NCBI GenBank assembly: GCA_040755335.1 | Contig: JBFMAU010000002.1 | Span: 1 to 52,321, forward strand | Length of the DNA stretch: 52,321 nucleotides | Direction: 5' to 3' | Origin: Acidobacteriota bacterium | GTDB taxonomy: Bacteria > Acidobacteriota > Blastocatellia > UBA7656 | Shown here: in pieces, positions 7,307 to 45,018 of the stretch | Numbering within the stretch: position 1 is the first letter of the stretch | Layout: each line of letters opens with the position of its first letter | The notes under the pieces: generated by a model | Databases searched by the model: none | Told to the model about the DNA's origin: nothing | What the model saw: only the letters and a program-made list of their open reading frames with translations | Translations under genes and position numbers: made by a program

Positions 7307-7335
7307 TTGTCCGCTCTCTGCGGCTTGGATATAAT
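7307..7335 (+). promoter_or_regulatory. Candidate sigma70-type promoter (TTGTCC-17 nt-TATAAT)
   Basis: -35 at 7307-7312, a perfect -10 TATAAT at 7330-7335, 17-nt spacer. Lies about 130 nt upstream of ATG 7465. Confidence 0.4.
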
Positions 7336-7363
7336 CTGGCCGCTTCCTAACACCATTTTCACA

Positions 7364-7464
7364 GGAGCCTCGTGGCGCAATCTGACGGATTGCGCGTCCT
7401 GAAAATATGAAAACCGGGGGCCACGCAAGACGAGTCTTGCGCCACTTTTTCCAAGGAGTCAGTA
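7364..7464 (+). promoter_or_regulatory. Conserved structured 5' leader motif, copy A (hairpin - GAAAATATGAAAA - hairpin - SD)
   Basis: GCGCAATC(7375-82)/GATTGCGC(7388-95) and CGCAAG(7424-29)/CTTGCG(7436-41). Alignable over about 100 nt with 23510-23616. In both copies the motif ATG lies exactly 58 nt before the gene ATG. Confidence 0.6.
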
Positions 7465-8799
7465 ATGATCAGATTTCGTTTGTTCGCCTTCTTTTTCGTA
7501 CTCGCTTCAATCGTTTTGCCTGCTCTGAGATTTTCCGGCGCAGGGGCGCAATCCGCAGTGAAAGTCGTTTACGCCGGACGCCTGATCGATGGCACATCGA
7601 ACGCGGTTCGCTCGAATGTCTCGATCGTCATCGAACGCGACCGCATACGCGAAGTAAGAGATGGTCGCGCCTCAATCGAAGGCGCGGAAGTCATAGACCT
7701 GAGCGACGCGACCGTCCTTCCCGGATTGATAGATTGTCACACTCACCTGACGATGGAGCTTGGGCGCGGTTCAGGGAACGTCTTTTTAGGCATGGGCCGC
7801 AGAGATTCCGACATCGCGCTCGCTTCGACCGTCTACACTCGTCGGACTCTGATGGCGGGATTTACTACCGTTCGCGATGTCGGAGCGGCTAACTTCATCG
7901 ACATAAGCCTGCGCGATCAGATCAACGCCGGAGCCGTCACGGGGCCGAGGATGTTCGTAGCTACTCGCGCGCTTTCGATAACGGGCGGGCATGGAGATTT
8001 CGGAGGCATAAGGGAAAATCTCGTTCCTGAGCCGGGTTATCGCGAAGGGATAATCAACTCGCCCGAAGACGGAGTGCGCGCGGTGCGTTATTTCGCCAAG
8101 TACGGCGCGGATCACATAAAGATCACAGCAACCGGCGGCGTGCTGTCGATAGCCGATTCCGGTTCGGGGCAGCAATTCACTCTCGAAGAGATGAAAGCTA
8201 TAGTCGAGACGGCCCGAATGCTTGATCGCAAAGTCGCCGCGCACGCGCACGGAGTTGCGGGGTTGAAAGACGCCCTGCGCGCGGGGGTAGCTTCAATCGA
8301 GCATGGAACATATCTCGATGACGAAGCCATTGCGTTATTCAAAAAGCACGGGGCGTATCTCGTGCCGACTATCATCGCGGGAAAGACGGTAGAGATGGCG
8401 GCAAAGGTGCCGGGATTTTTTCCGCCTGCGATAGAAGCGAAGGCGCGAGCGATAGGGCCGCTGATTCAGGGCGCGTTCGGGAAAGCCTACCGAGGCGGAG
8501 TGAAGATAGCCTTCGGCACTGACGCGGGGGTTTTCCCGCACGGTCAGAACGCGAAAGAGTTTGAATACATGGTCGAAGCCGGGATGCCTGCGATAGAAGC
8601 TCTACTTGCGGCCACGCGCAACGCGGCTGATCTGATGGATCAATCAAATAACATCGGCAGCATTCAATCAGGCCGCTTTGCTGATATCATCGCGGTCCGA
8701 GGCGACCCGACATCTGATATCAAGCTGCTTCAAAGTGTCAGCTTCGTGATGAAAGGCGGCACCGTTTACAAGCGAGACGGCAAGCCCGTCGTGCAGTAA
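7465..8799 (+). CDS. Secreted amidohydrolase-family metallo-hydrolase
   Basis: Signal peptide, PGLIDCHTHL, AAHAHG, IEHGT and FGTDAGV motifs. RBS AAGGAG. Confidence 0.85.
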   Translation: MIRFRLFAFFFVLASIVLPALRFSGAGAQSAVKVVYAGRLIDGTSNAVRSNVSIVIERDRIREVRDGRASIEGAEVIDLSDATVLPGLIDCHTHLTMELGRGSGNVFLGMGRRDSDIALASTVYTRRTLMAGFTTVRDVGAANFIDISLRDQINAGAVTGPRMFVATRALSITGGHGDFGGIRENLVPEPGYREGIINSPEDGVRAVRYFAKYGADHIKITATGGVLSIADSGSGQQFTLEEMKAIVETARMLDRKVAAHAHGVAGLKDALRAGVASIEHGTYLDDEAIALFKKHGAYLVPTIIAGKTVEMAAKVPGFFPPAIEAKARAIGPLIQGAFGKAYRGGVKIAFGTDAGVFPHGQNAKEFEYMVEAGMPAIEALLAATRNAADLMDQSNNIGSIQSGRFADIIAVRGDPTSDIKLLQSVSFVMKGGTVYKRDGKPVVQ

Positions 8800-9833: not shown

Positions 9834-11207
9834 TCACTGCTGTCGTTTGGCCGCGCGAAGAGAGATGTGCAGATATTCGGCTCTGCCGTCCGCGCCCGCT
9901 ACGAGCGCGAACGGCTGAGAGCCAGCGGGCATCGCGATTGAAAATCTCCCTTCGCCGATCTTTTTAACGACTCCCTCCGTGTTGCCTCGTTTGCCATAGA
10001 GCTTTCCGTCTTTGATCAATAGCTCGAATCGCTGCGGCTGCTGAACGTACACTCCCACATAACGAGCCATCTCCGCTTCGCTCATCGGTATCTCTTTTTC
10101 TGATTCTTTGACTTCGGGCCCAAGCGGCAGCATAAGCTCCATCGCTTTTTCCGCCGTCCGACTGAGCGATACGCCGCTGCGATTGCCAAGCGCGATCACC
10201 CCGAAACCGTGTTCCGGCGACATAGCGATGATCGAACCGTAGCCGCTGCGCGAGCCTCCATGCTGAATGATGCGCACGCCTCGATGCTCTCTTATCACAA
10301 GACCGTATCCGTAATGCGAATCCGAAGCGGGTATCTTCACCCGCGGCTCGGAGAGTTTCGCAATCAGAGAGGCTGAAAGAACCTGTTTGCCATCGAGCTT
10401 GCCTCCATTGACGAAAGCCGTGACGAATCGCGCGAGATCTGCGACGCTTGAAAAGATCGAACCTGCTGGCCACGATGCTGAATTATCGGCCATCGGTCTT
10501 ACGACGACAGGCTTGCCATTCGAGATGTTATGCCCCTGCGCCAGAGGAAAGGTCATCGCCATAGTCGGGCGAAGCGTCGTCGAGTTCATACCTGCGGGTT
10601 TGAACAAAGCGTCATTCAACTGATCGGCGTAAGGCTTGCGGCTCACTTCCTCGATGACGAATCCGGCGAGCCAGTAGCCCGGATTCGAATAGGAAATGAT
10701 CCGCCCCGGCTCCGTAAACAATCGGTCTTCCTTCCACGAACGCACTTCGTTCGAGAGCGCCGAATCATCATGCAAACCATACATAGGCGCGTCGTCTCTT
10801 ACGCCTGCCGTGTGCGTGAGGAGTTGATGAGCGGTGAGTTGCGCAAGACGGGGGTGAAGCCCGCGCGTGTAATTGCCTACGGGAAGGTTGAGATCGATTC
10901 GTCCTTCTTCAGAGAGAGCCACAAGAGCCGCAGCCGTGAACATCTTCGTAGTCGAACCTAAACGAAAGAGCATATCCGGTGTCACAGTTGCGCCGGTTTC
11001 GACGTTCGATATGCCGAAGCCTTTGGAGAAAACAACCCGGCCTTTGCTGATTACGGCCACTGCCGCTCCGGGCGCGTTTTTCTCTCGGATCTCTTCGAGT
11101 ATTACTTTTTCGAGCGCGCTGAAATCCGGCTCATTCGCGCGACGGACAGGAGCGACGATGGATACGAGGAGCAGGCTCATCGAAAGAATAAAAACTTTTC
11201 TGCGCAT
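9834..11207 (-). CDS. Beta-lactamase-related serine hydrolase (class C/PBP4*-like), secreted
   Basis: SxxK motif in FRLGSTTKMF, YSNPGY motif, signal peptide. ATG 11207 is preceded by AAGGTGA. Confidence 0.85.
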   Translation of the reverse strand: MRRKVFILSMSLLLVSIVAPVRRANEPDFSALEKVILEEIREKNAPGAAVAVISKGRVVFSKGFGISNVETGATVTPDMLFRLGSTTKMFTAAALVALSEEGRIDLNLPVGNYTRGLHPRLAQLTAHQLLTHTAGVRDDAPMYGLHDDSALSNEVRSWKEDRLFTEPGRIISYSNPGYWLAGFVIEEVSRKPYADQLNDALFKPAGMNSTTLRPTMAMTFPLAQGHNISNGKPVVVRPMADNSASWPAGSIFSSVADLARFVTAFVNGGKLDGKQVLSASLIAKLSEPRVKIPASDSHYGYGLVIREHRGVRIIQHGGSRSGYGSIIAMSPEHGFGVIALGNRSGVSLSRTAEKAMELMLPLGPEVKESEKEIPMSEAEMARYVGVYVQQPQRFELLIKDGKLYGKRGNTEGVVKKIGEGRFSIAMPAGSQPFALVAGADGRAEYLHISLRAAKRQQ

Positions 11208-13067: not shown

Positions 13068-15260
13068 CTACTTCATCTCCATCACCCACACGTTGCCTGT
13101 GGTTTCGGCGTATTCGTAAACGATCTGATTTCCGAGAGGCGACCACACGGGATAGCGGACATAAGTGTTCGGTCGGGTGTGAGAAGTCAATTGCCTTTGC
13201 TCTCTGGTGCTGCGCGAGACCCAGTAGATATTCCATACTCCGCCGCGCTCTCCGGCAAACACTATCTTGTCTCCGTCAGGAGACCACCCGCCTGTCCAAC
13301 TCTGCCCTCTGTCGGCTGTCAACTGAATGGCTTCGCCTCCGCCGGAGGGGATGATCGCTATGTGAGAGTCATCTCCGCGCTTCATCTCCATCGCAAGCCA
13401 GCGGCCATCGGGAGACCAGTGAGCAAAGCCCATCATCTCGCTGTCGAAAGTCAGTTGCCGCGGCTCTCCGCCTTCCAGAGGAGCTATCCACACGTTGACC
13501 GTCCCGCTCCTTCTCGAATTGAAGGCAATCGATTTTCCGTCGGGCGAAATTTTCGGGTTGAAGATATCGCCTGTCACCTCGGTGAGCAGCCGTTCTCTGC
13601 CGTCGCGAAGGTTTATCGAGCATATAACGGGGCGGCCTTCTCGCTGCGTCCGTATCGCGATGGCATCTCCTCCCGGAAGCCAGTCGACGAGGCTCAATCC
13701 AACGGGGTCGGTCGTCATCTGTGTGATGTTTTTTCCGTCCGTATCCACCACCCACACGTTGAAAGGCACGCCCGCGCGCCACACGTTGAAGGCTATGCGT
13801 CGGCCATCGGGCGAAAAAGCCGCGTTCGTTTTTCTGTAGCTCGTGTCGCTGGTAAGCATCCGAGGTTCAGACGCGGCTTTGAAGGAATCCGCAGAAAGCG
13901 CAATCGTTGCGAGATCGCTCGTCTGATTGAGCAGAGTGTAGGCCAGACGTTTTCCGTCGGCTGAAATCGAGAGATGCTTGGCGAGCGAAAGCCCCGTGCT
14001 TGTCACCTCGATGGGCGTACCTTCCCCTTCGCCCGTCTTTGAAATTTTCAGCCTCCACAATCCGAAGTTGATGGAGCCTGAAGACGCGCTGTAATAGATC
14101 CATTCTCCGTCGGGCGAATAGAGGGGATCGAAATGAAATTTGTGAGTGGGCGCGAGTCGTTTCAAATCGCCGCCTCCTGATGAAACCGTCCACATCTCCG
14201 AAAGCCCCGTGTCGCTTGCGACGAAAACCAATCGCTTGCCGTCGGGCGAAAAACGCGGCGACCCATGCCCGCCCGACGGCTGCCCCACCTGAGTGACGGG
14301 CGTCGGATGTCCGCCCTGAAGCGAAACCCGCCAGATAGTCGAAGGCGGCATTGTGAAAGCAGTCGTGCCGAGATCAGATATCCCGCCTGATTGAAATGCT
14401 ATCGCACCGCCGTCGGGCGACCACGAAGGGCGCGAGCCGAATTCCGAAAGTCTTCGCGCCGCGCCGCCAAGAGCCGGGATGACCCAGATGCCGCCGCGCG
14501 TCTTCGAGTGATAAGCGATGAGCTTTCCGTCGGGTGACCACGCGGGCTGAAGATTCTGCCCTCCGTCTGAGGTTAGCTGTATCTCGCGCCCGCCTGTTGC
14601 GAGCGGTTTGACATAAATTTCAAAGCTCCCTGCATGATCGGAACTGTAAGCGACCGAACTCCCGTCAGGCGAGAGAGTCGGATAGATATCCATGCCGGTC
14701 CACGTGGTTATCTGCGCCGTCCTGATCGGCGACGCGGGAGCGGTCGGACTCTCCCCGGTTTTGAGTTTCCAGACAAAGATAGATATGACGACGATTGCCG
14801 CGAGAGCGATGGCTGATAAAAGCAACGTCGCGCGGCTCACTCTGATTTTATTTCCGTGAGACGCTACCGTAGGTATGACGACAGGTTCGACGCGAGGCGC
14901 GGGCGAGCGGATAAAGTCGGCGTCTTCTTTCACGTCACAGATGAAGCGATAGCCGCGACGCGGAACGGTTTCGATGTAGCGTGGAGAGTCTGCATCATCG
15001 CCTATCGTCTGGCGAATCTCTTTGATGGCTCGCGTCAATGCGTTGTCGGTGACGAAAGCATCTTTCCAGATTTGGTCAAAGAGTTCCTGTTTTTCGACCA
15101 CCCGCCCGCGATTCTCCACAAGGAAGAGAAGCACGTCGAAGGCGCGAGGCGTGAGCGAGCGGGGCGTTCCATTTTTTTGAATGCTGAAGTTGTAGCAATC
15201 GATCAGCACATCATCGAAGTGATAAGAAGTTGCGCGAGGTTGACTCGATACTGCCATAGT
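13068..15260 (-). CDS. CadC/OmpR-type winged-helix DNA-binding protein with TM helix and periplasmic TolB-like (PD40) beta-propeller
   Basis: N-terminal LTPRAFDVLLFLVENRGRVVEKQELFDQIW...TVPRRGYRF, then a TM helix, then repeated SPDG..IA(F/Y) PD40 units. ATG 15260 lies after GGTGA. Confidence 0.85.
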   Translation of the reverse strand, partial: TMAVSSQPRATSYHFDDVLIDCYNFSIQKNGTPRSLTPRAFDVLLFLVENRGRVVEKQELFDQIWKDAFVTDNALTRAIKEIRQTIGDDADSPRYIETVPRRGYRFICDVKEDADFIRSPAPRVEPVVIPTVASHGNKIRVSRATLLLSAIALAAIVVISIFVWKLKTGESPTAPASPIRTAQITTWTGMDIYPTLSPDGSSVAYSSDHAGSFEIYVKPLATGGREIQLTSDGGQNLQPAWSPDGKLIAYHSKTRGGIWVIPALGGAARRLSEFGSRPSWSPDGGAIAFQSGGISDLGTTAFTMPPSTIWRVSLQGGHPTPVTQVGQPSGGHGSPRFSPDGKRLVFVASDTGLSEMWTVSSGGGDLKRLAPTHKFHFDPLYSPDGEWIYYSASSGSINFGLWRLKISKTGEGEGTPIEVTSTGLSLAKHLSISADGKRLAYTLLNQTSDLATIALSADSFKAASEPRMLTSDTSYRKTNAAFSPDGRRIAFNVWRAGVPFNVWVVDTDGKNITQMTTDPVGLSLVDWLPGGDAIAIRTQREGRPVICSINLRDGRERLLTEVTGDIFNPKISPDGKSIAFNSRRSGTVNVWIAPLEGGEPRQLTFDSEMMGFAHWSPDGRWLAMEMKRGDDSHIAIIPSGGGEAIQLTADRGQSWTGGWSPDGDKIVFAGERGGVWNIYWVSRSTREQRQLTSHTRPNTYVRYPVWSPLGNQIVYEYAETTGNVWVMEMK

Positions 15261-15542
15261 TTTCACCAATTGGTCGCTGCGCGGTCGGGCGACACTGAAA
15301 AGTCACGCTTCAGTCAGGCATCTGTCATTACCTGCTGGCCTTTCTCGATTATAGTCCCGGACTGTGGGTGAACAAAATCCACAGCCCTGATTGCAGATTG
15401 AATTCGGTTTGGGAAGGCGCGCGGATGCCTGTTTCCGCTCTTTGGGTTGTGCCTCTCAGCGGAGCAGGACGGCCTTCCCTATTTTTGCTCAACCGTCATC
15501 AACCTGCAATCCGGCATTTGAAAATGAGGAAGGGGTAGGGTT

Positions 15543-15965
15543 ATGAAAAAACGAATCATTCTGGCAATGGCTTTTATGTCTTTCGTCGCAGCGGTGTCGC
15601 TTTCTGCCTTCGCTCAGGCGCGAGGGTTGACAGCCGACATACCTTTCAACTTTACGGTCAAAGAGCGCGCGCTTCCCGCAGGCCATTACACCATCGAAGC
15701 GGTTCGCCTCGCCGGGTCGGATGCGCTTCGAATCATCAGCGCGGACGGGCGCATCAGCGCGACTGTGCTGGTCAGAGCGGAGAGCAGGGAGTCCGGGCAG
15801 GAGCCGCGTCTCGTCTTCAATCGCTACGGCGATCAGTATTTTCTCGCTGAGGTTTTCGGATTCGAGCGACGGACGGCGCATCAACTCGCGAGGTCGAAGC
15901 GTGAAGACCATCTTGCAAAGCTGGCTGACAGGTCTCGCGTGACGGTCGAGGCAAAGCAGAGGTAG
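15543..15965 (+). CDS. Secreted hypothetical protein
   Basis: Signal peptide MKKRIILAMAFMSFVAAVSLSAFAQA and a good RBS. No family recognised. Confidence 0.6.
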   Translation: MKKRIILAMAFMSFVAAVSLSAFAQARGLTADIPFNFTVKERALPAGHYTIEAVRLAGSDALRIISADGRISATVLVRAESRESGQEPRLVFNRYGDQYFLAEVFGFERRTAHQLARSKREDHLAKLADRSRVTVEAKQR

Positions 15966-15978
15966 AAGAAAGGAAAAA

Positions 15979-16040
15979 GCAAAAAGGCAAGGGGCAAAAG
16001 CTGCTGTTCGAACTTTTGCCTTTTGCCTTTTACATTTTGC
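15979..16040. terminator. Bidirectional hairpin made of TTTTGCC/GGCAAAA heptamer units between convergent genes
   Basis: gcaaaaaggcaaggggcaaaag - ctgctgttcgaa - cttttgccttttgccttttacattttgcc. Confidence 0.6.
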
Positions 16041-16044
16041 CTTC

Positions 16045-18123
16045 CTACTGGCCCGGCGCGCGGCGAGTCGGGCGCGGGGGCGCGGGCGGCGCGACCGGTC
16101 GTATATCGCCTTCAGGCGCTTTGACTATGGCTGTATCTATCACCTTCTGATAAATCTTGATCTTGCCCTGCTGCTGAAGCTGTTTTTGCGCCCACGCCAG
16201 GTAAGACATAAACATCGCGTTGCGCTTTGTAGCAAGCAGGCCTTCTTCTATCGAGCGGCGCTGTTTTTGAAACTCCGCGCCCATGTCTGCGTCCGCGCGC
16301 TTGACCATAGAAGCGACGAAATAATTGTCGCCGTCTTCGAGTTTGATAGGCTCTCGCAGCACCTCGCCTTCCTTGAGCTTGTATATTTTCGCTCGCTCCG
16401 CCTCGTTGGTAAGAGAGCCTATCGAGTCAGTGCCTGAGAGAACCCTCTCATCGGGTTTGAGTTTCCGGGCGTCGGCTGCGCTTTTGAGCGCGTCGGGCGA
16501 GGAGGCTTGCGCGATCTGGCGGGCGAGGGCGAGGGCCTGCTCGCGGGCTTTATCCGTGCGATAGCGGTCCTGAACTCTAGCTTTGACTTCCTCGAAAGTC
16601 GGATCGTGCGGATCGCGTTTTTCTATGTACTGAGGAACGGCGAATCCGTTGTTGACGTTGAGGTAGCTGCCTATGTCGCCGGGATTTTGCAATTCGAAGA
16701 CCGAATCCTGAAATCCGACAGCCGCGCCGAGGTCGGGGAGCGAGTCGCCTTGGGCAAAAAAGGGCGTCTCTTTTACCTCGGCCACCTGTGCGTTGTACTT
16801 CTGATTGATCTCGGCCACAGTCGCTTCGATGTTGTTCGTCTCTTTGAATTTCTGCTCGGCCTCTATGGCGATGTCTACGGCTTTCGTATAGCCCTTCTCC
16901 GAGCGGACATCCTTGATGAGTTGCTCGCGCGATTCTTCAAAGGTGGGGAGTCTCCGGTCTGTGACTTTGAGTATGTAGAACCGGTCGCCTTTTTTGATAG
17001 GCTCGCTGATCTGGTCTTTCTGCATATTGAAGACGCGGTTGAGCGGATCGTCAGTTTCGCGTTTGTCTTTCTTGTTGACCCATCCGAGGTCGCCGCCTGC
17101 GGGTTTGGTCTTTTGATCTTCGCTCAACTCGCGCGCGAGTTTGGCGAAGTCCTCGGCGGGTTTTCCTTCCGCGCCGCGGGCGCGACCGACTATCTCGTCA
17201 GCTTTCTTGCGCGTTTCTTCTTCGGGCGTGGGTTTGTCTTCATCCTCTGTTTTTTTGCTGTCGGTCTTATTGTCAGTTTTGGGTTTTGGGATGTTGAGCG
17301 TGATCTGGCTCACGCGAACCTGCTGGACATTGCGTTCGGGGTTGAATTTCTGTCTGAGTTCGTCGTCCGATATTTGAATCGTCTCGCCCGCTTTCGCCTG
17401 ATTGATGAAGATGTAACGGGCGCGCCGCTGATCGGTGTTGATGCGAAAATCGGATCTGCGCGAATCGAAGTAAGCGCGGATATCTGCGTCGGTGAATTGG
17501 ATCTTGTCGCGGAAATTATCGGCGCGGACTTCGGCCCATCGAATAGTGTATTTGGAATTCCTGCTGCGATAATCTTCCTCGACTTCGCTTGCGGGAGCCT
17601 GAGCGGCTGCCGTCACGTAGCTGCGCAGTTTCTGTTCGGTGATGCTTGTGCGGACGCTCTCCTCGAATTCGAAAGCGGTCACTCCCATCCGGGCGAGTTG
17701 CTCTCGATAAACTTCCGGGCCGGGCCAGGGACTAAGACCCGGCAGCTTCTTGAGATTATCCTGCAACTCGGTGTCAGTAGTCTGCAGGTTGAGCCGTTCG
17801 GCTTCATAGAGGATGATCTTCTGGCGTATGAGTTCTTCAAGCACCTGCTCGCCGTAAAGCTCATAGACTTTGGCCGGAGAGTCGCGCCTTACGGCTCCCT
17901 GTCCCTGAGCTATTTGCTGACCGTAGCGAGATAGCGCATCGCGGTATTCCTTGGCCGTGATTTCGAGGCTTCCGACCCGCGCCACTACCGAATCGTCTGC
18001 GGAACCGGCTGATTGCTGCCAGACGATAGTGAAAAGACCGAGCATACCGAGCGCAAGCACGATGATGATGCCCCACAAAAAAGTGCGGGCTGTTCTCTTG
18101 CGACGGCTTAAAAACTTCAACAT
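16045..18123 (-). CDS. PpiD/SurA-like periplasmic chaperone, peptidyl-prolyl isomerase (parvulin domain)
   Basis: N-terminal TM anchor, SurA-N-like region, parvulin signature ...AGGDLGWVNK. RBS GGGAGG lies 8 nt before the ATG. Confidence 0.8.
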   Translation of the reverse strand: MLKFLSRRKRTARTFLWGIIIVLALGMLGLFTIVWQQSAGSADDSVVARVGSLEITAKEYRDALSRYGQQIAQGQGAVRRDSPAKVYELYGEQVLEELIRQKIILYEAERLNLQTTDTELQDNLKKLPGLSPWPGPEVYREQLARMGVTAFEFEESVRTSITEQKLRSYVTAAAQAPASEVEEDYRSRNSKYTIRWAEVRADNFRDKIQFTDADIRAYFDSRRSDFRINTDQRRARYIFINQAKAGETIQISDDELRQKFNPERNVQQVRVSQITLNIPKPKTDNKTDSKKTEDEDKPTPEEETRKKADEIVGRARGAEGKPAEDFAKLARELSEDQKTKPAGGDLGWVNKKDKRETDDPLNRVFNMQKDQISEPIKKGDRFYILKVTDRRLPTFEESREQLIKDVRSEKGYTKAVDIAIEAEQKFKETNNIEATVAEINQKYNAQVAEVKETPFFAQGDSLPDLGAAVGFQDSVFELQNPGDIGSYLNVNNGFAVPQYIEKRDPHDPTFEEVKARVQDRYRTDKAREQALALARQIAQASSPDALKSAADARKLKPDERVLSGTDSIGSLTNEAERAKIYKLKEGEVLREPIKLEDGDNYFVASMVKRADADMGAEFQKQRRSIEEGLLATKRNAMFMSYLAWAQKQLQQQGKIKIYQKVIDTAIVKAPEGDIRPVAPPAPPRPTRRAPGQ

Positions 18124-18505
18124 AGTTTGTGCCTCCCAGATTGAGGAAAAGTCGGTTTGAGGAAAAACCGAATTTTAGTCGAACGCGTCGGAGATTGACA
18201 ACCAAAGAGGGGGCCGTCCGAACGGATGGTCGAAATCAAAAATCAGGGCTTGACAATCTCTGCCGAAAAAACAATCATATTGCCCGTCAGGAATCTCTCT
18301 GAAGTTTTAATCAAGGACAAGACTGCTTTGCGGGGGTTGAACGACCCTTTGAAGTTCATCGCTGATGCCGGATCGGTGACTGTTTCCGAGTGATTCAGAG
18401 TCTTTGTCCGATCAAGGTGCAACCCGTGTAACACAAAAGAACAATTCAGGCTCAATCCATTTGGGTACCTATCCGCCTGGCAGGAGTTTGAAAGGAGAAG
18501 AGGCT

Positions 18506-21500
18506 ATGCGAAAAAAGATCAATTGCTTGCTGCTTCTGGTCACTGCGTTGACACTGGTGGCAAGAACCGCTCTGCCCGTCATGGCTCAACAGAGTCCTAC
18601 CGGCTCGATCAAGGGAACGGTGACAGACGAGCAGGGAGCAGTAATCACAAAGGCCACCGTCACGGTGACCAACAAAGCGACCGGTGAATCGAGAAAAGTC
18701 AATGCTGGCGATGATGGCATATATCTTGTCAGCACTCTTCCACCGGCAGAATATGAGGTGAAGATCGAAGCCGAAGGGTTTTCAACCCATATCTTCACAA
18801 CTGTAATCGAAGTCGGAAAGACCAACTCCGGCGATGTGAGCATGCGCGCTGGCAGTCCGAGCGAAATAGTCAACGTAGAAGCTGGCGCTGCCGTCATAGA
18901 CAAAAGCAGCAACCGCATTGAAGGAGTCATCTCGCGGCAGAAGATCGATTCTCTTCCGCTCAACGGGCGCAACTTCCTTCAACTCGCTTTGCTCGAACCG
19001 GGAGTGACGGTCTCGACTTCCAATCCCGGAAACGCCAACAACTTGTTCAACGTCTCGTTTGGCGGTTCCAATTCGGCCAGCACCCGAATCACGGTCGATG
19101 GAGGGAGCGTACTCGATCTGGTCACGGGCGGGGCCGCGCAGAACTTCTCGACCGAAACTATTCAGGAGTTTCAGATTTCCTCGTTCAACTTCGACCTCTC
19201 GACGGGCGTCACCTCAACGGGAGCAGTCAATATAGTTTCCCGCACAGGGACGAACGAGTTTCACGGGTCAGGCATCTTTTTCGCCCGCGACGATCAGTGG
19301 GCCGCCGTCCCGACGCTTCGTCAGGGAGCGCCTGATTTTCGCCGCTACCAGTACGGCGGGTCTTTGGGCGGGCCTATAAAGAAAGATCGCGCTTTCTTTT
19401 TCGGCAACCTTGAATTCCTCAATCAGGACTCGGTGTTTTCGACCGTCACCAGCGGGTTCAGCGGGTTCCGACAGTTGGATAACAACTTCGGCAGCCCGTA
19501 TGACGGACTGGTCGTCAATGCCCGCTTCGACATACCGAAGTTCATCAGCGACAAGAACAACCTGTTCCTTCGCTACAGCTATGACTGGAACGACACCTTC
19601 GCGCCTGTCACTCTCAACACCTTCCCGTCGAACTGGCGCGCAAATGAAAATCGCGACCACAATGCGATAGGCGGTCTGACGACCGTATTCACTCCGAACT
19701 TCGTCAACGACCTGCGCTTCAACTACCAGCGCATAGATAACGACAGCACCATCCCTACGGAAGAGGACTGCCCCTCGGTCAATCCCGGATGCGTGGGGCG
19801 CGGGGGGGTGCAGGTGATAGTGCTTGGCAGCGGCATACAACTGGGCAACTCGACAAACGCGCCTCAGAGCCGCGTGCTGAACCGCTATCAGACGACTGAC
19901 AATGTGAACTGGCAGAAGGGCGCGCACCGCATACGCTTCGGCGGCGAGTGGGAGCATAACCTCGGCAAGGGAGGCTGGGCATTCCTCGATCCTGCGCTCG
20001 TCGTCCTGCACGATCCCAACAACGTGTTTGCCGTCAACGCGGCGGTCGCCGCTGCGCCTATTCCCGCTCCGCTCAAGGCGGCTCTTACGATCCCGCTGCC
20101 TGCGGTGTTTTCAAATCCGACTCTGCCCATAACGGTAAACGATATCCTTCAGCTTCCCATCGCGGTGGCTTTCATAGGCATCGGCGATCCTATCCAGCCG
20201 CAGCCCTTCAATCGCGAGATAGCGCGCCGCAGCCATCGCTTCCGATTCTACGGGCAGGATTCGTGGCTGGTTCGTCCGGGGCTTACTTTCAACTTCGGCG
20301 CGTCCTACATGTTCGAGACGAACCTCTACAATCACGATCTGGCCAAGCCCGCTTTCCTCGCTCCTCTCGTCGGCCCTGATCTTTCTCCCTCGAAGAAGGA
20401 TAAAGACAACATAGGGCCATCGCTGGGGTTTGCCTGGGACGTTAAAAACGACGGCAAGACGGTCATTCGCGGCGGCGGCGGGATGTACTATGACACGGCG
20501 CTGTTTGTGACTCGTCTGCGCGAGCGCAGCTTCATCGCCCCGCTGCTCAACGGGCGGGTTCCGATCACGGGCGATTTCTATCGCAATCCGTTCACCTTCG
20601 TGCCGCTCCCGAATATCCCTGCGCTGGGGCCGTTGAATCTGATCAACGTCACTCCGGGTACGCCGATAAACTTCCAGGTCATTCCGACCAAGTTCACGGG
20701 CGCGCACTTCCTCCAGATACTCGGCCCGCAGAACGCCACCATCAACTCGGCTCTCAAGCAGCTCGGTCAGGCGGGATTCACGGGGATAGATTTCTTCAAG
20801 AACGGCGAAGAAATACTCGATCCTCAAAACGACACCCCCTACACGCTCCACTACAATCTGGGCGTCGCTCGCCAACTGCCGTGGAATATGACCGTCTCGG
20901 CTGACTTCGTGCTGCGCAAGGCGGTGCATTCGCAGTTCATCACCGACTACAACCGCTTCAATCGAGCGCCTGCAAACGGCGGAGCCAAGATTCGCAAGTG
21001 CGCAAACGCTCAGGAAGCCATCGATCCGACGGTGAGATGCTCGAACGGAGCCATCAACTTCGTCCAGCACGGCGGTCGCAACGAGTACCGGGCGCTGCTT
21101 GTGAAACTCGACAAGCGGTTCTCGAATCGCTTCCAGTTCACGGCAAGCTACGCGCTGGCTCAACTGCACGGCTATGTCACTGGCGAAAATCTCGACAACC
21201 TCTTCGAAAGAGTCGTCGATTTCGGAGGAGACGCGCGCCACAGCTTCGTCTTCAGCGGCATCGTGGAATTGCCCTGGGGGATTCAGGCGTCGCTCATTTC
21301 CATAGTCCGCAGCCGCGGGCCGTTCAACGCCCGCGTGCCGAACACCATCGACCTCAACGGCGATGGAACGCGCGGTGACACGCTGCCGGGTCTGACCCTC
21401 AATTCGCTCAATCGCGGAACGAGCAGGGAAGAACTCTTCCGGCTCGTCAACGAATTCAACGCACGGTTTGCGGGCCAACTCGACGCGCAGGGAGCTTTGA

Positions 21501-23444: not shown

Positions 23445-23463
23445 CCTGAAGACATTCTCTTAT

Positions 23464-23495
23464 CGGGGGCGAGCCGCCCGCCCCCGAAAGTTTTT
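23464..23495 (+). terminator. Intrinsic terminator
   Basis: CGGGGGCG-agccgcc-CGCCCCCG followed by AAAGTTTTT. Confidence 0.7.
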
Positions 23496-23509
23496 CCCGC
23501 CATCACCGA

Positions 23510-23616
23510 GGAGTCTTTGATGTGGCACAATCCGTCGGATTGCGCGCGCCCCGAAAGCATGAAAATTCGGGGAACCCGCAAGCTCGCGAGCTTGCGCCAC
23601 CCGGAGGAGTCTGACC
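23510..23616 (+). promoter_or_regulatory. Conserved structured 5' leader motif, copy B
   Basis: GGAGTCTTTGATGTGGCACAATCCGTCGGATTGCGCGCGCCCCGAAAGCATGAAAATTCGGGGAACCCGCAAGCTCGCGAGCTTGCGCCACCCGGAGGAGTCTGACC ATG. Same architecture and spacing as copy A. Confidence 0.6.
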
Positions 23617-25239
23617 ATGCGAAAGATGAAAATATCTCTGTTGATCTTCGTCCTCTCGCTTGCGGCGCTTGCGCCTGCCTTTTCTCAACAATCGGCCAAC
23701 AGTCGCGCGGACGAGATGGTTCCCATGCGCGACGGAGTGAAACTCGCCACAACCATATACCTCCCGGAAGGCGAAGGCCCATGGCCCGTCGTTCTGGTTC
23801 GCACGCCTTATGGAAAAGATACTCAATCCGGGGGCCATGCCTCGTGGACGAAGCGAGGCTTTGCGCTAGTGACGCAGGATTGTCGCGGTCGCTTCAAATC
23901 GGAAGGCCAGTATCGCCCGTTCGTCGATGACCCGCAGGACGGATACGACACAGTTGAATGGATAGCCCGACAGAAATGGGCTAACGGCAAAGTCGGGATG
24001 TTCGGCGCGTCGGCTATGGGCATAACGTCGAACCTTGCGGCGATTGCCAACCCGCCGCATCTTGCGGCCATATTCGTGATGGTCGCCAGGTCGAGCATCT
24101 ACACCCAGTCGGCTTTCAACGGCGGAGTCTTTCGCAAAGAGCTTAACGAACTATGGCTCAAGCGCATGAATGCCGAAGATGTGCTGATGGAGACTTTTCG
24201 TCACAACGTCTACGACGGCTTTTATGATTCGAATGAGATGTCACTTCACTGGCAGAAAATTCATGTGCCGGCCTACAACTACGGCGGATGGTACGACATA
24301 TTTTCGCAGGGCAACGTCAGCAACTTCGCAGGGCTGCAAACGAAAGGAGGCAAGGGCGCAAGAGGCAATCAGAAACTTATGATGGGCCCTTGGGGTCACG
24401 GCGCTATCGAAGAAGTCAAATATCCGGCGAACTCTGTCGTGAATGTCAGCGAAGAAGCGATGCGATGGTTCGACTACTGGCTCAAGGGAGTGGATAACGG
24501 AATCATGCGCGAGCCTTCGGTGAAGTATTACGCGATGGGAGACGTGACCGATCCGAAAGCTCCCGGCAATGAATGGCGCACCGCCGCCTCGTGGCCCGTC
24601 CCGTCGCGCATCACGTCTTACTATCTTCAACCCTCCGGCGCGCTCAGTGACAAAGCCCCGACCATTCAGGAGAGCGCGGACTCTTACAAGTACGATCCGA
24701 AAAATCCGGTGCCGACGATTGGAGGAGCGAACCTCTTCATCAAGAAAGGCCCTATGGATCAGCGCGCCGCGGGAGAACGCAAGGATATTTTGAAGTACCT
24801 GACAGCGCCGCTCGATTCTGCGGTCGAAGTGACGGGACAGATCGAAGCTGAAATATGGGCCGAAAGCGACGCGCCCGACACTGATTTCATGGTCAAACTC
24901 GTGGATGTCTACCCGGACGGAACGGAGAGGCTGGTTCTGGACTCGGCCATTCGAGCGCGGTTTCGCGAAGGGTTCAACCGCGAGGTCTTCCTGGAGCGGG
25001 GCAAGGTCTACAAATTCAAGCTGGATTTGTGGTGTACGAGTCTCGTCTTCAATCGCGGCCATCGCATAGCGGTTCATGTGACAAGCTCGAACGATCCGCG
25101 CTATGACCCGAACCCGAACACAGGCCGACCGATGCGCGCGGATTCGGAAACGCGCGTGGCCACAAACGCGGTTCATCATGATAGAAAGCATCCGTCGAGG
25201 ATACTGCTGCCCGTCGCGCAAAACGGCAATCGTCCCTAA
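23617..25239 (+). CDS. CocE/NonD-family hydrolase (X-Pro dipeptidyl-peptidase S15-like), secreted
   Basis: Signal peptide, MVPMRDGVKLATTIYLPEGEGPWPVVLVRTPYGK, GASAMG nucleophile elbow, C-terminal beta-sandwich. Confidence 0.85.
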   Translation: MRKMKISLLIFVLSLAALAPAFSQQSANSRADEMVPMRDGVKLATTIYLPEGEGPWPVVLVRTPYGKDTQSGGHASWTKRGFALVTQDCRGRFKSEGQYRPFVDDPQDGYDTVEWIARQKWANGKVGMFGASAMGITSNLAAIANPPHLAAIFVMVARSSIYTQSAFNGGVFRKELNELWLKRMNAEDVLMETFRHNVYDGFYDSNEMSLHWQKIHVPAYNYGGWYDIFSQGNVSNFAGLQTKGGKGARGNQKLMMGPWGHGAIEEVKYPANSVVNVSEEAMRWFDYWLKGVDNGIMREPSVKYYAMGDVTDPKAPGNEWRTAASWPVPSRITSYYLQPSGALSDKAPTIQESADSYKYDPKNPVPTIGGANLFIKKGPMDQRAAGERKDILKYLTAPLDSAVEVTGQIEAEIWAESDAPDTDFMVKLVDVYPDGTERLVLDSAIRARFREGFNREVFLERGKVYKFKLDLWCTSLVFNRGHRIAVHVTSSNDPRYDPNPNTGRPMRADSETRVATNAVHHDRKHPSRILLPVAQNGNRP

Positions 25240-25334: not shown

Positions 25335-25557
25335 TCTCTTCTCCTGCGCACAAAAAATGTCTGCAAATCGAGGGATGCCTCCGCGAAGTTGCAAAGCGCG
25401 TCGGACTCTCTGTCGAGCCTTCCTCAAACAGTTGACTCATGCGCTGGCGGCAGTTATTTGCTCTGGGTCATGCGAGCGCGATGGCTTGTAGCGACTCTCT
25501 GCATCGCAGGCCGAGCGGTGATTATGATACTCTGTGGGTTCTACAGTGGAACCTTTC

Positions 25558-25640
25558 CGGCAGCGCAGACTGGCAGATGGCTGCCGTAAAGCATGAAAAT
25601 CGGGGACGAGCAGGCCCAAAGCCCGCCTCGTCGGAGGAGA
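25558..25640 (+). promoter_or_regulatory. Leader motif relative, copy C (hairpin - AAAGCATGAAAATCGGGGA - hairpin - GGAGGAG)
   Basis: CGGCAGC/GCTGCCG hairpin, a core identical to copy B apart from a 1-nt gap over 18 nt, then an imperfect GACGAGCAGGC...GCCCGCCTCGTC hairpin and the SD. Confidence 0.5.
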
Positions 25641-25658
25641 CATCAATTGGCGACTCGC

Positions 25659-26915
25659 ATGATTAAAATCCTGCCCCTGTGTCTGGTATTTCTGTTCGCG
25701 CCATCCGCCCTGAGAGCGCAGACCTCATCGCCCGAAAGCGGGGAGGTGGAGACGCTTCGCAAAAAAATAGAAGCTCAGGAGGCGCAGATAAAACTGCTGC
25801 GCGAGATGCTCGACCGTCAACAGAGCATGCTCGAAGCCATACAGCAAAAGCTCGCTCAACCGGTCGCGTCGGATCAGAATAAATCCTCTCATACAAACTC
25901 TTCCGAGAGCGCAAAGGCTGCGACTCAGACGACTGAAAGCGTGGAAGCGGGCGCGGGCAAAATAAGATTCAACGGGCTGGCGCAGGTATGGTTTGCGTCG
26001 GGCAACGAAGGATTCCGTGACACCTTTCGTTTGCGTCGCGCGCAGTTGCGATTCAGCGGCGAACTCAATCCTAAACTCAAATGGACGGTGATGCTCGATG
26101 CTGCCAAGGCGCTTTCAGCAAACGACTCCTTCGAGGGGGGCGCATTGAGCGACGTGAAGATCGATCAATCCTCGCGAATACTTCAGGAAGCCTTCCTCAC
26201 GCTCGATTACATTCCGAGAGTTCATCTCGACGCGGGCCAGTTCAAAGTGCCTCTCTCTCTGGAACTGCTGCAACAGGCTTCGGCTCTCGACACAATTGAG
26301 CGCGCGCTGTTCATCTCAGACCGCTCGCGCGGAGGACTGGGAGTCGCTCGCGACATCGGCCTCGCGATGCGCGGTCGCCTGCACCGTCAGGTAGATTATC
26401 AACTCGGCCTTTTCAACTCCAGCGGCGAGCATCAAAACGACTCTGACCGTAACGATCAAAAAGCTCTGATCGGAAGAGTTGCTTTCCGCCCGCCTTTCAT
26501 CAAAGGTTTGCAGGTGGGAGCCTCCGGCGCGTGGGGAGGCGGAGAGCGGCCCGACCGCGTGCGACGCGACCGCGCAGGCGGCGAGGTGCTGTTTGATCGC
26601 AACGGCTTCAAATTCAAATCCGAACTGATGGCGATCACCGACGGCGACACGCATCGCCTCGGTTATTACGCTCACGTCGGCTATCGCATAACTCCGAGGC
26701 TTGAGCCTGTGTTCCGCTTCGATTCCTTCGATCCGAACACCGGTCTCGAAACCGGTCAGGCGAATGTGACCGAGCGCGATTACGTCGCAGGTCTCAACTA
26801 TTACATCAACGAAAACAAACTGAAGCTCCAGATGAACTACCTTCGCAAAACTTTCGAAAACGGATTGCTCCCTTCTCGCAATCTGGTTCTTGTGAATCTG
26901 CAAACCTCCTGGTGA
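25659..26915 (+). CDS. Phosphate-selective porin O/P-like outer-membrane protein with N-terminal coiled coil
   Basis: Signal MIKILPLCLVFLFAPSALRAQ, coiled coil EVETLRKKIEAQEAQIKLL, beta-barrel pattern ending ...LVNLQTSW. An in-frame ATG at 25593 belongs to the leader motif and is an alternative start. Confidence 0.7.
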   Translation: MIKILPLCLVFLFAPSALRAQTSSPESGEVETLRKKIEAQEAQIKLLREMLDRQQSMLEAIQQKLAQPVASDQNKSSHTNSSESAKAATQTTESVEAGAGKIRFNGLAQVWFASGNEGFRDTFRLRRAQLRFSGELNPKLKWTVMLDAAKALSANDSFEGGALSDVKIDQSSRILQEAFLTLDYIPRVHLDAGQFKVPLSLELLQQASALDTIERALFISDRSRGGLGVARDIGLAMRGRLHRQVDYQLGLFNSSGEHQNDSDRNDQKALIGRVAFRPPFIKGLQVGASGAWGGGERPDRVRRDRAGGEVLFDRNGFKFKSELMAITDGDTHRLGYYAHVGYRITPRLEPVFRFDSFDPNTGLETGQANVTERDYVAGLNYYINENKLKLQMNYLRKTFENGLLPSRNLVLVNLQTSW

Positions 26916-35308: not shown

Positions 35309-38137
<2,829 letters not shown>

Positions 38138-40764: not shown

Positions 40765-40804
40765 ATTCTGACTTCAGACTCCAGACTCGCGACTCCAGAC
40801 TTTT
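40765..40804 (+). repeat. (GACTCCA)n leader repeat, copy 4
   Basis: ATTCTGACTTCAGACTCCAGACTCGCGACTCCAGACTTTT, then CTAAGGAG and ATG 40821. Confidence 0.8.
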
Positions 40805-40820
40805 CTAAGGAGTATCGAAT

Positions 40821-42002
40821 ATGCGCGCTACGATTTCTTTTCTCGCAATTTTAGTTCTCGCCTCGTCGGCTATAGCTCAGTCACCGGCGGCTGATCTCGA
40901 CCGCTTGAGAGTCGAAGGATTCGATGCCGTCTACAACCTCGATTACAAGTCGGCGCGCGAGCGGTTTCTCCAGATGACCCGTCTTGCACCCGATCACCCG
41001 GCAGGCTACCTCTATCTCGCAAACAACCTCTGGCTCGATTACCTCAACTCCACCCGCAGGCTTTCGACTTCGCTCTACACGGGGCAATCCTTTTACCAGC
41101 AGGACAAAGAAGAAGACGCCTCCGATATCCGTCGGGATCGCGAATTTGGCAACCTCATCCGTCAGGCGATTCTCGTCGCTCAGGAGCGATTGAAAAAAAA
41201 TCCCTCTGACGCGGAAGCCCTCTATTATCAAGCCTCCGCGCTCGGCATTCGCGCAGGCTACTACGTCACCGTGAAGCGCAGTTTTCGCCGCGCCATCGGA
41301 GACGCCAACGAATCGGTCGTGCTTCATCGCAAAGTCATAAAGCACGATCCCGATTATGTCGACTCATACCTCAGCATTGGGCTTTACGAATACGTCATCG
41401 ATTCGCTGCCGTGGGTGTGGAGGACTCTTGCGCGGCTTGCGGGGCTAAAGGGGTCGAAGAAGGAAGGCATCCGTCATCTTGAAATGGTCGTCGAGCGCGG
41501 CAAGTACGCTCCGGACGATGCGCGGGTCGTTTTGATAGGGCTTTACAGCAAAGAAGGGCGGACGGATCGCGCGCTTGAGATGATAAGCCAGCTTTCCGCC
41601 AGGTACCCTCGCAATTATCTGTTCGCAATCGAGCGCGCGGGATTGTTTTATCGCGCGGGCCGCGCCGATGAAGGCAGCCGCGTTTACGGCGATCTGCTCA
41701 AGGATGCCGTGGTGGCGCAGATAGCGACCGATCTGGTGAATTATCAGTGGGGCGAATCCCTTATGGCAAAAGGCGATTATCCATCGGCGCTCGAAAAATA
41801 CAATGCCGTAAAGCAGTGGAAGCAATCCGCCCCCGATCTGGTCTCGCTTGCGCACCTTCACGCGGCGCAATCGCTCGACGCAATGGGCAAACGCGCGGAA
41901 GCAGTGGCCGAGTATCAGGCGGTTCTCAAACGCGAAAATGTTTTCGATTCGCACAAGCGGGCCAATGAGTATGTGAAAAAACCGTTCGCGCCTGCAAGTT
42001 GA
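40821..42002 (+). CDS. Secreted TPR-like repeat protein
   Basis: Signal peptide MRATISFLAILVLASSAIAQ and helical-repeat composition (e.g. AEALYYQASALG, GDYPSALEKY). Confidence 0.65.
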   Translation: MRATISFLAILVLASSAIAQSPAADLDRLRVEGFDAVYNLDYKSARERFLQMTRLAPDHPAGYLYLANNLWLDYLNSTRRLSTSLYTGQSFYQQDKEEDASDIRRDREFGNLIRQAILVAQERLKKNPSDAEALYYQASALGIRAGYYVTVKRSFRRAIGDANESVVLHRKVIKHDPDYVDSYLSIGLYEYVIDSLPWVWRTLARLAGLKGSKKEGIRHLEMVVERGKYAPDDARVVLIGLYSKEGRTDRALEMISQLSARYPRNYLFAIERAGLFYRAGRADEGSRVYGDLLKDAVVAQIATDLVNYQWGESLMAKGDYPSALEKYNAVKQWKQSAPDLVSLAHLHAAQSLDAMGKRAEAVAEYQAVLKRENVFDSHKRANEYVKKPFAPAS

Positions 42003-42057: not shown

Positions 42058-42702
42058 TCATCCAGCCACAGGCATTTTGAATGGTAGCATGGGAGTTTCG
42101 TAGTGCGCTGATCGCCCCAGTTCGTCACCCCACTGAGACCAACCAAGCTTTGTGTGTCGCGCAAACAATTCCAGATACGGGCCAGGACTGCACGATTCGA
42201 TAATTTTGTAAAGCTCATCGGGTTTTCTCGAATGCTCGCGCTTCCGGCTTACGATAACATTAACCTGTCTACGGCCAGATTCCAAAGTGCGATTATTTTT
42301 CCCGCGCACTCCAAATAAAACCATTTCAGTTACGTTGCGAAAATAGAAACCAACGCCACGCCCATCCGGTCCACCATCTTTACGCACCTTGTACCAAACG
42401 AGGTTCGTCTTGTAAGTGAATCCCCAACGCTCCATTACTTCCAATCCTTCTTTGACCAGAGCGTTGGGTACCCACAGATAAAGGTGGCTCTGGGGCATTG
42501 CAAGTTGCGCGACCGGCAATTCCATAATTTCCTGAAGCGTCATTGTGCCGTATCGTGACAGGCGCTTATGCTCTGGGGCCATCTTGCCGGTGCGGTTAGT
42601 AAAACGCCAGGGCGGATCGGCCAGGATTGTGCGGAAATGACCGAGGTTGCGTGATAGCAAATCCTCAGCAGCACTCAGTTGAAAGCCATTATCTTGTTTC
42701 AT
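42058..42702 (-). CDS. MT-A70-family N6-adenine DNA methyltransferase (type II R-M, M subunit)
   Basis: ADPPWRF catalytic motif, ...HSRKPDELYKIIE...LELFARH..GW..WG. Start taken at ATG 42702, which overlaps the R-gene stop (ATGA). The track ORF extends to 42753. Confidence 0.8.
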   Translation of the reverse strand: MKQDNGFQLSAAEDLLSRNLGHFRTILADPPWRFTNRTGKMAPEHKRLSRYGTMTLQEIMELPVAQLAMPQSHLYLWVPNALVKEGLEVMERWGFTYKTNLVWYKVRKDGGPDGRGVGFYFRNVTEMVLFGVRGKNNRTLESGRRQVNVIVSRKREHSRKPDELYKIIESCSPGPYLELFARHTKLGWSQWGDELGRSAHYETPMLPFKMPVAG

Positions 42703-44716: not shown

Positions 44717-44832
44717 GGCGTCACCTCTCTGTTTGAAAAAGCCTCCGTCGTCAGATATTACCACATCAATCACAAAGCTATGGTCGCAACTCCGCGCGTG
44801 TTTCGATATAATCGTCCGTTCGCAAAAGCGAT

Positions 44833-44920
44833 GCGGCGCGATCCAAGATTGCGCCGCGCATGGAAAATATGAAAGCGCGCGTCGAATAGTGGTCAGTCGA
44901 AAACTGATCGGCGCGCGGGT
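44833..44920 (+). promoter_or_regulatory. Leader motif relative, copy D
   Basis: GGCGCGATC-caa-GATTGCGCC hairpin, GGAAAATATGAAAG core, then CGCGCG...CGCGCG hairpin enclosing AGTGGTCAGT. Lies about 100 nt upstream of ATG 45019. Confidence 0.45.
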
Positions 44921-45018
44921 GTTCCGGCTCCTGCTTGCGCGGGGGCGGTTGCATCCAGCACAATAACGAGGTGTGGCAAAGCGCCCACAACTCAATCAAA
45001 CAATCAGCGAGGACTATA

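Follow-up and report, generated by a model that had tools for sequence, protein, structure and literature searches.

A dispersed, probably REPIN/MITE-like palindromic repeat immediately upstream of start codons in a small group of Blastocatellia

The leader at positions 7364-7464 of the 52,321-nt stretch of DNA analysed here (the window) is probably one copy of a lineage-restricted, dispersed palindromic repeat of about 100 nt which resembles the REPIN and MITE classes of elements, a reading drawn from sequence comparison and held with a probability of about 60%. The source organism is a member of the Blastocatellia, as judged from the names given to the closest protein homologs, and the repeat is found at many non-orthologous sites in a small group of this class of the Acidobacteriota. 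It is about 95-110 nt long and consists of two inverted copies (H1 and H2) of a GTRG-tagged, GC-rich stem-loop unit, reading GTRG, CGCAAKC, loop, GMTTGCG, placed around a short central stem which bears a strongly conserved 13-nt loop (consensus AAAGYAUGAAAAU). A Shine-Dalgarno-like purine box lies on the 5' side, and a pyrimidine tract and a working Shine-Dalgarno sequence on the 3' side. The repeat is dispersed, turns over fast and directly precedes a start codon in every copy; we do not regard it as a ligand-sensing switch.

Copy A (7362-7464; 88.8 bits, E = 1e-24 with covariance model R2) fills the leader of an amidohydrolase gene (7465-8799; Pfam Amidohydro_1, E = 3e-45) and, like copies B and C described below, is located on the plus strand of the window. 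The TATAAT upstream of it, flagged in an earlier sequence-only reading of this DNA, forms part of a sigma-70-like promoter match (TTGTCC-17-TATAAT, 7307-7335), a consensus match only, with a predicted start near 7342, approximately 20 nt before copy A. The copy opens with the purine box GGAGCCT (the 'L box', 7364-7370), which takes the form RGRGYCK in 10 of 11 aligned copies. It is followed by the left unit (7372-7395), comprising a GTGG tag and H1 (GCGCAATC, loop TGACG, GATTGCGC), and by the central stem UCCUG/CGGGG with the conserved loop AAAAUAUGAAAAC (7397-7419), which at 1.72 bits per column is the most conserved segment of the element. The inverted right unit (7424-7445) comprises H2 (CGCAAGA/CGAG/TCTTGCG) and a CCAC tag, the reverse complement of GTGG. 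Compensatory changes occur at five of the seven pairs of H1 among 11 copies and likewise at five of the seven pairs of H2, where 93% of the cells are paired. The remainder of the leader (7446-7464), as read from the sequence, holds the pyrimidine tract TTTTTCC, the Shine-Dalgarno sequence AGGAG (7454-7458) and the spacer to the ATG at 7465.

Copy B (23508-23616; 95.7 bits with R2) occupies the leader or intercistronic region of an S15/CocE-NonD hydrolase gene (23617-25239; Pfam Peptidase_S15 and PepX_C), with a terminator-like hairpin and T run (23463-23496) between the upstream Amidohydro_2 gene and the copy, and is flanked by a 9-nt direct repeat, GAGGAGTCT (23508-23516 and 23604-23612). The alignment of these two leaders proposed in the sequence-only reading is borne out, and all of the sequence details which it listed were recovered where it had placed them. 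Copies A and B are homologous, with 77% mean column identity over approximately 160 columns including flanks, and an HMM derived from the pair recovers them from the 52-kb window at E = 3e-28 and 3e-32, far beyond chance. The leader is not confined to two secreted-hydrolase genes, as that reading had supposed, as a third, weaker HMM match in the window (25549-25642, nhmmer E = 2e-4) marks copy C (25546-25646; covariance model scores of 63.5-68.8 bits), which precedes a Porin_O_P gene (25647-26915; Pfam) heading a PhnD-like ABC transporter operon. Copy C shares the core AAAGCATGAAAATCGGGGA with A and B and has different hairpins (CGGCAGC/GCTGCCG and GACGAG..CTCGTC). The porin gene starts with a TTG located 7 nt after GGAGGAG, and the N-terminus of the protein read from this TTG (25647) agrees with that of the element-free ortholog in relative L092. 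The porin ORF extends in frame to the loop ATG of the repeat, and ORF listing and gene calling take this ATG as its start (25593 in the window, 11848 in L091), which is likely a systematic mis-annotation caused by the repeat. The distance of exactly 58 nt between this internal ATG and the gene start, reported earlier for A (7407 to 7465) and B (23559 to 23617), is correct for both; it is 54 nt in C and therefore not a general property. A further candidate, 'D' (44823-44930, plus strand), was matched by nhmmer at E = 0.02 but reached only 4.9 bits with the covariance model, is absent at the orthologous locus L097 and was rejected as a fourth copy. It is situated in the divergent region between an HD-domain gene and a TPR lipoprotein-like gene and consists of an H1-like hairpin, GAAAATATGAAAG and a large hairpin (two strong hairpins, z = -3.07 versus shuffles), of which the first hairpin and GAAAATATGAAAG are repeat-like. 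Upstream of the HD-domain gene ortholog, L097 carries a long inverted repeat of 'tagatgttag / ctaacatcta' units (9850-9950), which is unrelated to the repeat studied here.

The orthologs of the copy A amidohydrolase in other Blastocatellia and in Pyrinomonadaceae (L001-L006) carry no element, and the gene-centred search was therefore replaced by a motif-centred one. A scan of one genome per GTDB species with an exact core pattern gave 42 hits, where approximately 35 were expected by our own estimate, and the 39 hits of the same scan in metagenomes are likewise near chance by our own estimate; the only ones judged real came from 'Chloracidobacterium sp. UBA7656' (three) and from the metagenome contig L078. 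The core pattern misses diverged copies (B' with GCGGG, J and K), so that the copy numbers given here are lower bounds. The three full copies of UBA7656 (E, F and G) are located on different contigs (L025, L038 and L041), and the genes which they precede code for an unannotated cytoplasmic protein, a gamma-glutamyltranspeptidase and a 1069-aa HEAT-repeat protein. Contig L078 carries one full copy (H), upstream of a gene for an unannotated 189-aa protein, and a partial copy (M) upstream of a molybdopterin oxidoreductase gene. Three copies (B', C' and K) are held by relative L091 and one (J) by L094-L096, giving a total of 12 copies, a small sample, at 10 independent sites in at least five related genomes or contigs. 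Copies B' and K of L091 have in common the H2 variant GCAGGCTTCGAGCCTGCT.TACC (24 of 25 nt alike), and a relic with a similar H2 variant occurs in L097; on sequence grounds, these common variants point to genome-level sub-families or to gene conversion. The relic (13968-14081, 24 bits, H2 variant GCAGCAGGCTggcAGCCTGCTGTAC) is degenerate, without central core or adjacent start codon, and is the only copy-like sequence which is not found beside a gene start. Other covariance model hits at 20-26 bits, including that in L072, are explained by the search pattern itself and were rejected. In the Terriglobales MAG L016, a 36-nt stretch (1150-1197) is similar to the 3' strand of H1 and the central stem-loop in copy F, also outside the bases which the pattern prescribes; it lies inside an opposite-strand ORF of 468 aa, is not accompanied by H2 and may be a fragment or a chance match.

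The placement of the copies is regular. Every one of the 12, at the 10 independent sites, reads in the sense direction of the gene that follows, and in all 12 the 4-nt tag behind H2 is separated from the start codon by 14-20 nt, with the Shine-Dalgarno sequence in between. Gene context was used in no search step, so this regularity is not an ascertainment effect. The sequence-only reading had named dispersed repeats in random orientation as the finding that would count against it; the copies are indeed dispersed, but every one is in sense and beside a ribosome-binding site. Copies A and C precede the first genes after promoter-like sequences, while B, J and K are intercistronic. The downstream genes are unrelated, coding for an amidohydrolase, an S15 hydrolase, a porin/ABC transporter, a gamma-glutamyltranspeptidase, a HEAT-repeat protein, a molybdopterin oxidoreductase and unannotated cytoplasmic proteins (Pfam), and at 6 of the 10 sites the gene that follows codes for a secreted or periplasmic hydrolase, a porin or a solute-binding protein.

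Comparison of syntenic loci, which we regard as the decisive evidence, shows that the copies come and go between close relatives. The locus comprising the TonB-type OMP, Amidohydro_2, S15 hydrolase and porin genes is syntenic across all four relatives. The B and C sites, upstream of the S15 hydrolase and porin genes, respectively, are filled in the window and, as B' and C', in L091 (94% amino acid identity), and empty in L092/L093 (89%) and L094-L096 (85%). The A site upstream of the amidohydrolase gene is filled in the window and empty at the syntenic locus of L088 (78%) and in L089. The syntenic element-free loci at A, B and C belong to relatives at 78-89% protein identity. Copy J occupies the interval between the porin stop codon and the start codon of the binding-protein gene in L094-L096, while in the window and L091 these codons overlap (TGAATG); because two relatives have overlapping stop and start codons at this position, the sequences make J clearly an insertion. 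Copy K is found in L091 only, within a two-gene island which is absent elsewhere. At the A, B and C sites the polymorphism reflects either gain or loss, and among the four sites only J is clearly an insertion. Together, the missing elements at the syntenic A, B and C sites and the gain of J indicate a rapid gain or loss of the repeat. In L092, the syntenic locus is followed downstream by a gas-vesicle cluster (GvpL/F, GvpG, GvpA and an ArsA-like ATPase; 14168-19182) which is absent from the window.

At the empty B sites (L092, L094), a terminator is followed by about 25 nt and by a single AGGAGYC box 4 nt before the ATG, and the empty A site of L088 reads TATATAAT ... cccatttcAAGGAGattgattATG. 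Where B is filled, this Shine-Dalgarno box is found on both sides of the element (GAGGAGTCT twice in the window, GAGGAGCCT twice in L091), versus once at the empty sites. The left and right flanks match at 9 of 9 positions at B and B' and at 8 of 8 at H, the flank repeats not abutting the inverted repeats. Across six copies, the left and right boxes of the same copy are not significantly more alike than boxes of different copies (59 of 720 permutations, p = 0.08), and a target-site duplication is thus suggested by the sequences rather than established. Ordinary ribosome-binding regions of the clade (40790-40823 in the window; 8255-8270 in L088) are often composed of TTTTCT/CATTTC, AAGGAG, 7 nt and ATG, and this likeness to both flanks of the repeat may be the reason why the 5' and 3' boxes of the repeat look alike. 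Orthologous copies decay fast: the B region of the window and that of L091 form one contiguous blastn alignment with 89.3% identity, in which elements B and B' are 79% identical, and orthologous copies overall show 79-84% identity versus approximately 89% in the flanking DNA.

That a conserved structured segment is present in the 5' leaders, as claimed in the sequence-only reading, is supported, and its two local hairpins covary. In the 11-copy alignment, 86.8% of the cells of the three local helices are paired versus approximately 40% when the partners are slid by one to three columns, and compensatory changes are observed at 11 of the 19 local pairs, a number reached by none of 500 shuffles. 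The support sits in H1 and H2, the central stem contributing one compensatory pair. The count of 16 G-U pairs against 6 A-C mismatches makes the sense strand the more likely bearer of the structure. The A and B leaders are no more stable than their dinucleotide shuffles (z about -1.1). A closing helix of 4-7 bp between the 5' purine box and the pyrimidine tract is possible in A, H, B', G and F, this candidate pairing resting on purine/pyrimidine composition. The central loop, at 1.72 bits per column versus 0.94-1.47 for the stem strands, owes part of its conservation to the fact that seven copies were found via a pattern in this loop; B', C' and K keep GCATGAAAAT in it, and copy J has lost the AUG and CGGGG of the core. 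Its AUGAAAA core is predicted to be unpaired with a probability of 0.86-0.99 in 9 of 11 copies and of 0.46-0.54 in J and K, while for the Shine-Dalgarno region the mean predicted probability of being unpaired lies between 0.26 and 0.71, and no partner sequesters it consistently.

These features also bear on the possibility that the repeat is a cis-regulatory RNA of the host, a three-hairpin 5'-UTR module with the AAAGYAUGAAAAU loop as candidate site for a trans-acting protein or small RNA. Such a module would place the downstream genes, including many for secreted nutrient-scavenging enzymes and transporters, under common post-transcriptional control, with mobility or duplication being only the way in which the regulon grew. 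The strict sense orientation and spacing at 10 independent sites, the covarying stems with their excess of G-U pairs, a most conserved segment which is predicted to be unpaired and the six sites before secreted or periplasmic hydrolases, a porin or a solute-binding protein would all be expected of such a regulator. The remaining downstream genes are, however, cytoplasmic and unrelated, close relatives carry element-free orthologs of the genes concerned, orthologous copies decay faster than their flanks, copy J is without the AUG and CGGGG of the core and the conservation of the loop is inflated by the manner in which copies were found. A regulatory RNA of the host is therefore considered a possible but rather unlikely explanation of the repeat as a whole, in preference to which it is regarded as a REPIN/MITE-like element. 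The conserved central loop nevertheless hints, from its sequence, at a role at the level of the host, for example as a factor-binding site, and provides the best lead to one.

The sequence-only reading had seen in the leader the geometry of a riboswitch or attenuator. The 5' segment GUGGCGCAA would form a local helix or, alternatively, join the distal UUGCGCCAC beside the Shine-Dalgarno sequence, and expression would switch in response to a ligand or signal. Both pairings exist: GTGGCGCAA (7372-7380), which shares bases with the local hairpin GCGCAATC/GATTGCGC, is perfectly complementary to the distal TTGCGCCAC (7437-7445) and also complementary to GATTGCGC close by. The long-range 'rod' is the minimum-free-energy structure of A and B, where it is near iso-energetic with the local fold (ddG of -2.8 and -1.3 kcal/mol, respectively). 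It is 78.7% paired in the alignment, with some covariation, weaker than that of the local helices, and has a U run behind it in A, E and H. In constrained folding, however, A, B and H are the only copies in which the rod comes within 3 kcal/mol of the local hairpins. Its cost is +3 to +5 kcal/mol in F and G and +12.5 kcal/mol in K, and for C, C', E and J some of its base pairs cannot form. The cost rises to +24 kcal/mol in B', which is orthologous to B, and bistability is thus not conserved even at an orthologous site. The alternative helix moreover does not include the Shine-Dalgarno sequence, and the repeat is associated neither with a coherent gene set nor with conservation at orthologous loci, element-free syntenic orthologs occurring in close relatives. 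Since H1 and H2 are inverted copies of one unit, segments pairing as 1:2 and 3:4 can always re-pair as 1:4 and 2:3, and the 'mutually exclusive helices' simply come with the inverted-repeat architecture. Rfam gave no hits at gathering thresholds in the whole window and, at E values up to 10 on A and B, only chance-level hits to unrelated families; the repeat therefore corresponds neither to Acido-1, which had been put forward as a candidate, nor to any other curated family. Control by a riboswitch or attenuator is accordingly judged very unlikely.

The chances of a DNA operator are slimmer still. In this scenario a dimeric transcription factor would sit on the two palindromes, in which the half-site CGCAAKC is present four times, and keep transcription from proceeding beyond the promoter, and perfect 8-bp palindromes (GCGCAATC-N5-GATTGCGC and CGCAAGC-N5-GCTTGCG) are indeed found in several copies. 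Diverged copies, however, have changed the bases of their hairpins and kept the pairing (GGGCGATC/GATCGCCC in J, CGGCAGC/GCTGCCG in C, GCAGGCT/AGCCTGC in B' and K), which makes an operator unlikely, and they tolerate asymmetry of the G-U type, while several copies are located within operons, far from promoters. A leader peptide or uORF, translated from the loop AUG (which opens an 8-codon ORF, MKIG(D/G/E)xAS*, in E, F and G) or from the GTG, ATG or TTG found at Shine-Dalgarno-like spacing after the 5' box in A, B, F and H and controlling the downstream gene, is scarcely tenable because frames and lengths are not conserved (12 codons, more than 130 codons, start-stop or none, with 1-2 nt indels between copies), no Shine-Dalgarno sequence precedes the loop AUG and copy J has ACG in its place. 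A sigma-54 promoter or an internal sigma-70 promoter in the repeat was also rejected, as the spacings do not fit and differ between copies.

The preferred reading as a REPIN/MITE-like element draws on a close likeness to the GTAG/GTRG-tagged REP sequences, which are arranged head to head and have 6-9 bp stems, short loops, outside tags, G-T pairs and compensatory sub-families (PMC3733652). REP doublets constitute REPINs, whose ends are more conserved than the spacer and which are mobilised by RAYT tyrosine transposases, encoded by a single-copy gene that the same REPs flank (PMC3733652, PMC3116915). They are scattered in extragenic space with random placement and orientation, mostly 3' of genes (PMC3733652, PMC3116915). 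The repeat is similarly built of short GC-rich stem-loops (stems of 7-8 bp, loops of 4-5 nt), and its units are GTRG-tagged on the outside, lie head to head approximately 35 nt apart and can fold as one long hairpin. It also tolerates G-T/G-U pairs and displays many compensatory changes, lineage-specific families and per-genome sub-families. The left tag is GTGG in A, B and B', GTAG in G and H and ATAG in F. On the right, A, B, E, F, G, H and M carry CCAC, and C, C', J and K have degenerate tags or none; reverse-strand covariance model hits of 24-36 bits reflect the symmetry of the repeat. It differs from REPINs in that the spacer loop is more conserved than the REP-like ends, which is partly an ascertainment effect and, as far as the sequences go, points to a host-level function. 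It further differs in the sense orientation of all copies 14-20 nt before a start codon, in an apparently low copy number and in that no RAYT is linked to it in the window and the related loci compared. Neither RAYT/Y1 nor other transposases nor IS elements occur among the window genes or at these loci, and BLAST searches against plasmid and phage collections gave no match to the repeat.

Among the traits of MITEs, terminal inverted repeats are present (GTGGCGCAA / TTGCGCCAC, 9/9 in A and 8/9 in B and H) and weaker in the other copies (73.5% of the cells paired), and presence/absence polymorphism is seen at the A, B, C and J sites. Leader-borne MITEs include the Correia/NEMIS elements of Neisseria, the ERIC/IRU elements of enterobacteria and the BOX and RUP elements of pneumococcus, which are non-coding, approximately 100-150 bp long and bounded by terminal inverted repeats. 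These elements are co-transcribed with their neighbours, form mRNA hairpins and are present or absent between strains, in both orientations and at variable distances from genes, and Correia elements make a TA duplication. The repeat shares with these elements its non-coding nature, inverted ends, mRNA hairpins and variable presence, but not the variability, its orientation and spacing being fixed; none of them is known to occur at a fixed distance from a start codon or to duplicate or replace a Shine-Dalgarno sequence. The MIRUs of mycobacteria (Supply et al. 1997) are reportedly dispersed repeats of 40-100 bp that lie between operon genes in one orientation and preserve the translation of the flanking genes. 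MIRUs are tandem direct repeats with tiny ORFs overlapping stop and start codons. The repeat is likewise found between genes, in one orientation and with downstream translation preserved, and differs from MIRUs in its palindromic hairpins and its own Shine-Dalgarno sequence. With riboswitches and the cis-regulatory leaders of Rfam it shares the location in 5' leaders and conserved unpaired nucleotides flanked by covarying helices, and unlike riboswitches it has no Rfam match, coherent gene set, orthologous conservation or conserved expression platform. Strict sense orientation and fixed spacing from the start codon are typical of neither REPINs nor MITEs, and an orientation-specific placement near the ribosome-binding site is unusual for a REPIN/MITE-like palindromic repeat. 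Several features of other kinds were observed in the same loci. The IMP dehydrogenase gene of the window (35318-38137, plus strand) is interrupted by an intein with a LAGLIDADG homing-endonuclease domain (Pfam IMPDH, CBS, LAGLIDADG_3 and Intein_splicing), and intein and LAGLIDADG domains are also encoded in the FtsH gene of a relative (L098, 2304-6839). At 42058-43289 (minus strand) an MT-A70 family methyltransferase gene adjoins that of a BglII-like restriction endonuclease, the two likely constituting a type II restriction-modification pair.

The mechanism which we envisage is that the repeat moves, or did so until recently, as a non-autonomous element of the REPIN/MITE kind, which would insert at ribosome-binding sites in a single orientation. 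Insertion would leave or supply a Shine-Dalgarno sequence, such that the downstream gene could still be translated. The repeat would then be co-transcribed as a 5' leader or intercistronic RNA, probably forming three local hairpins with the central loop exposed, and any effect on expression, through mRNA stability, translation or a factor bound to the loop, would be secondary. An extension of this proposal, the 'portable leader', is more speculative and is held to be unlikely. It posits that a small self-propagating mobile element targets Shine-Dalgarno sites in one orientation, duplicates or replaces the Shine-Dalgarno sequence so that the gene survives and installs a structured 5' UTR, whose 13-nt loop is read by an RNA-binding factor encoded by the host or the element, a post-transcriptional regulon thus growing by transposition rather than by point mutation.

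The recognition of this repeat removes a false riboswitch candidate, whose apparent 'switch' geometry is explained by two inverted REP-like units, and documents a repeat family in the Blastocatellia, a little-studied soil lineage. It also has a practical bearing on annotation, as the conserved loop AUG misleads gene callers, for example in the porin ORF. The combination of sense orientation, a short and fixed distance to the start codon and a retained Shine-Dalgarno sequence can be read as the outcome either of insertion directed to ribosome-binding sites or of strong selection on the sites at which copies survive. If both the mobility of the repeat and a factor binding to its loop hold true, it would constitute a clear case of regulatory leaders spreading as mobile DNA.
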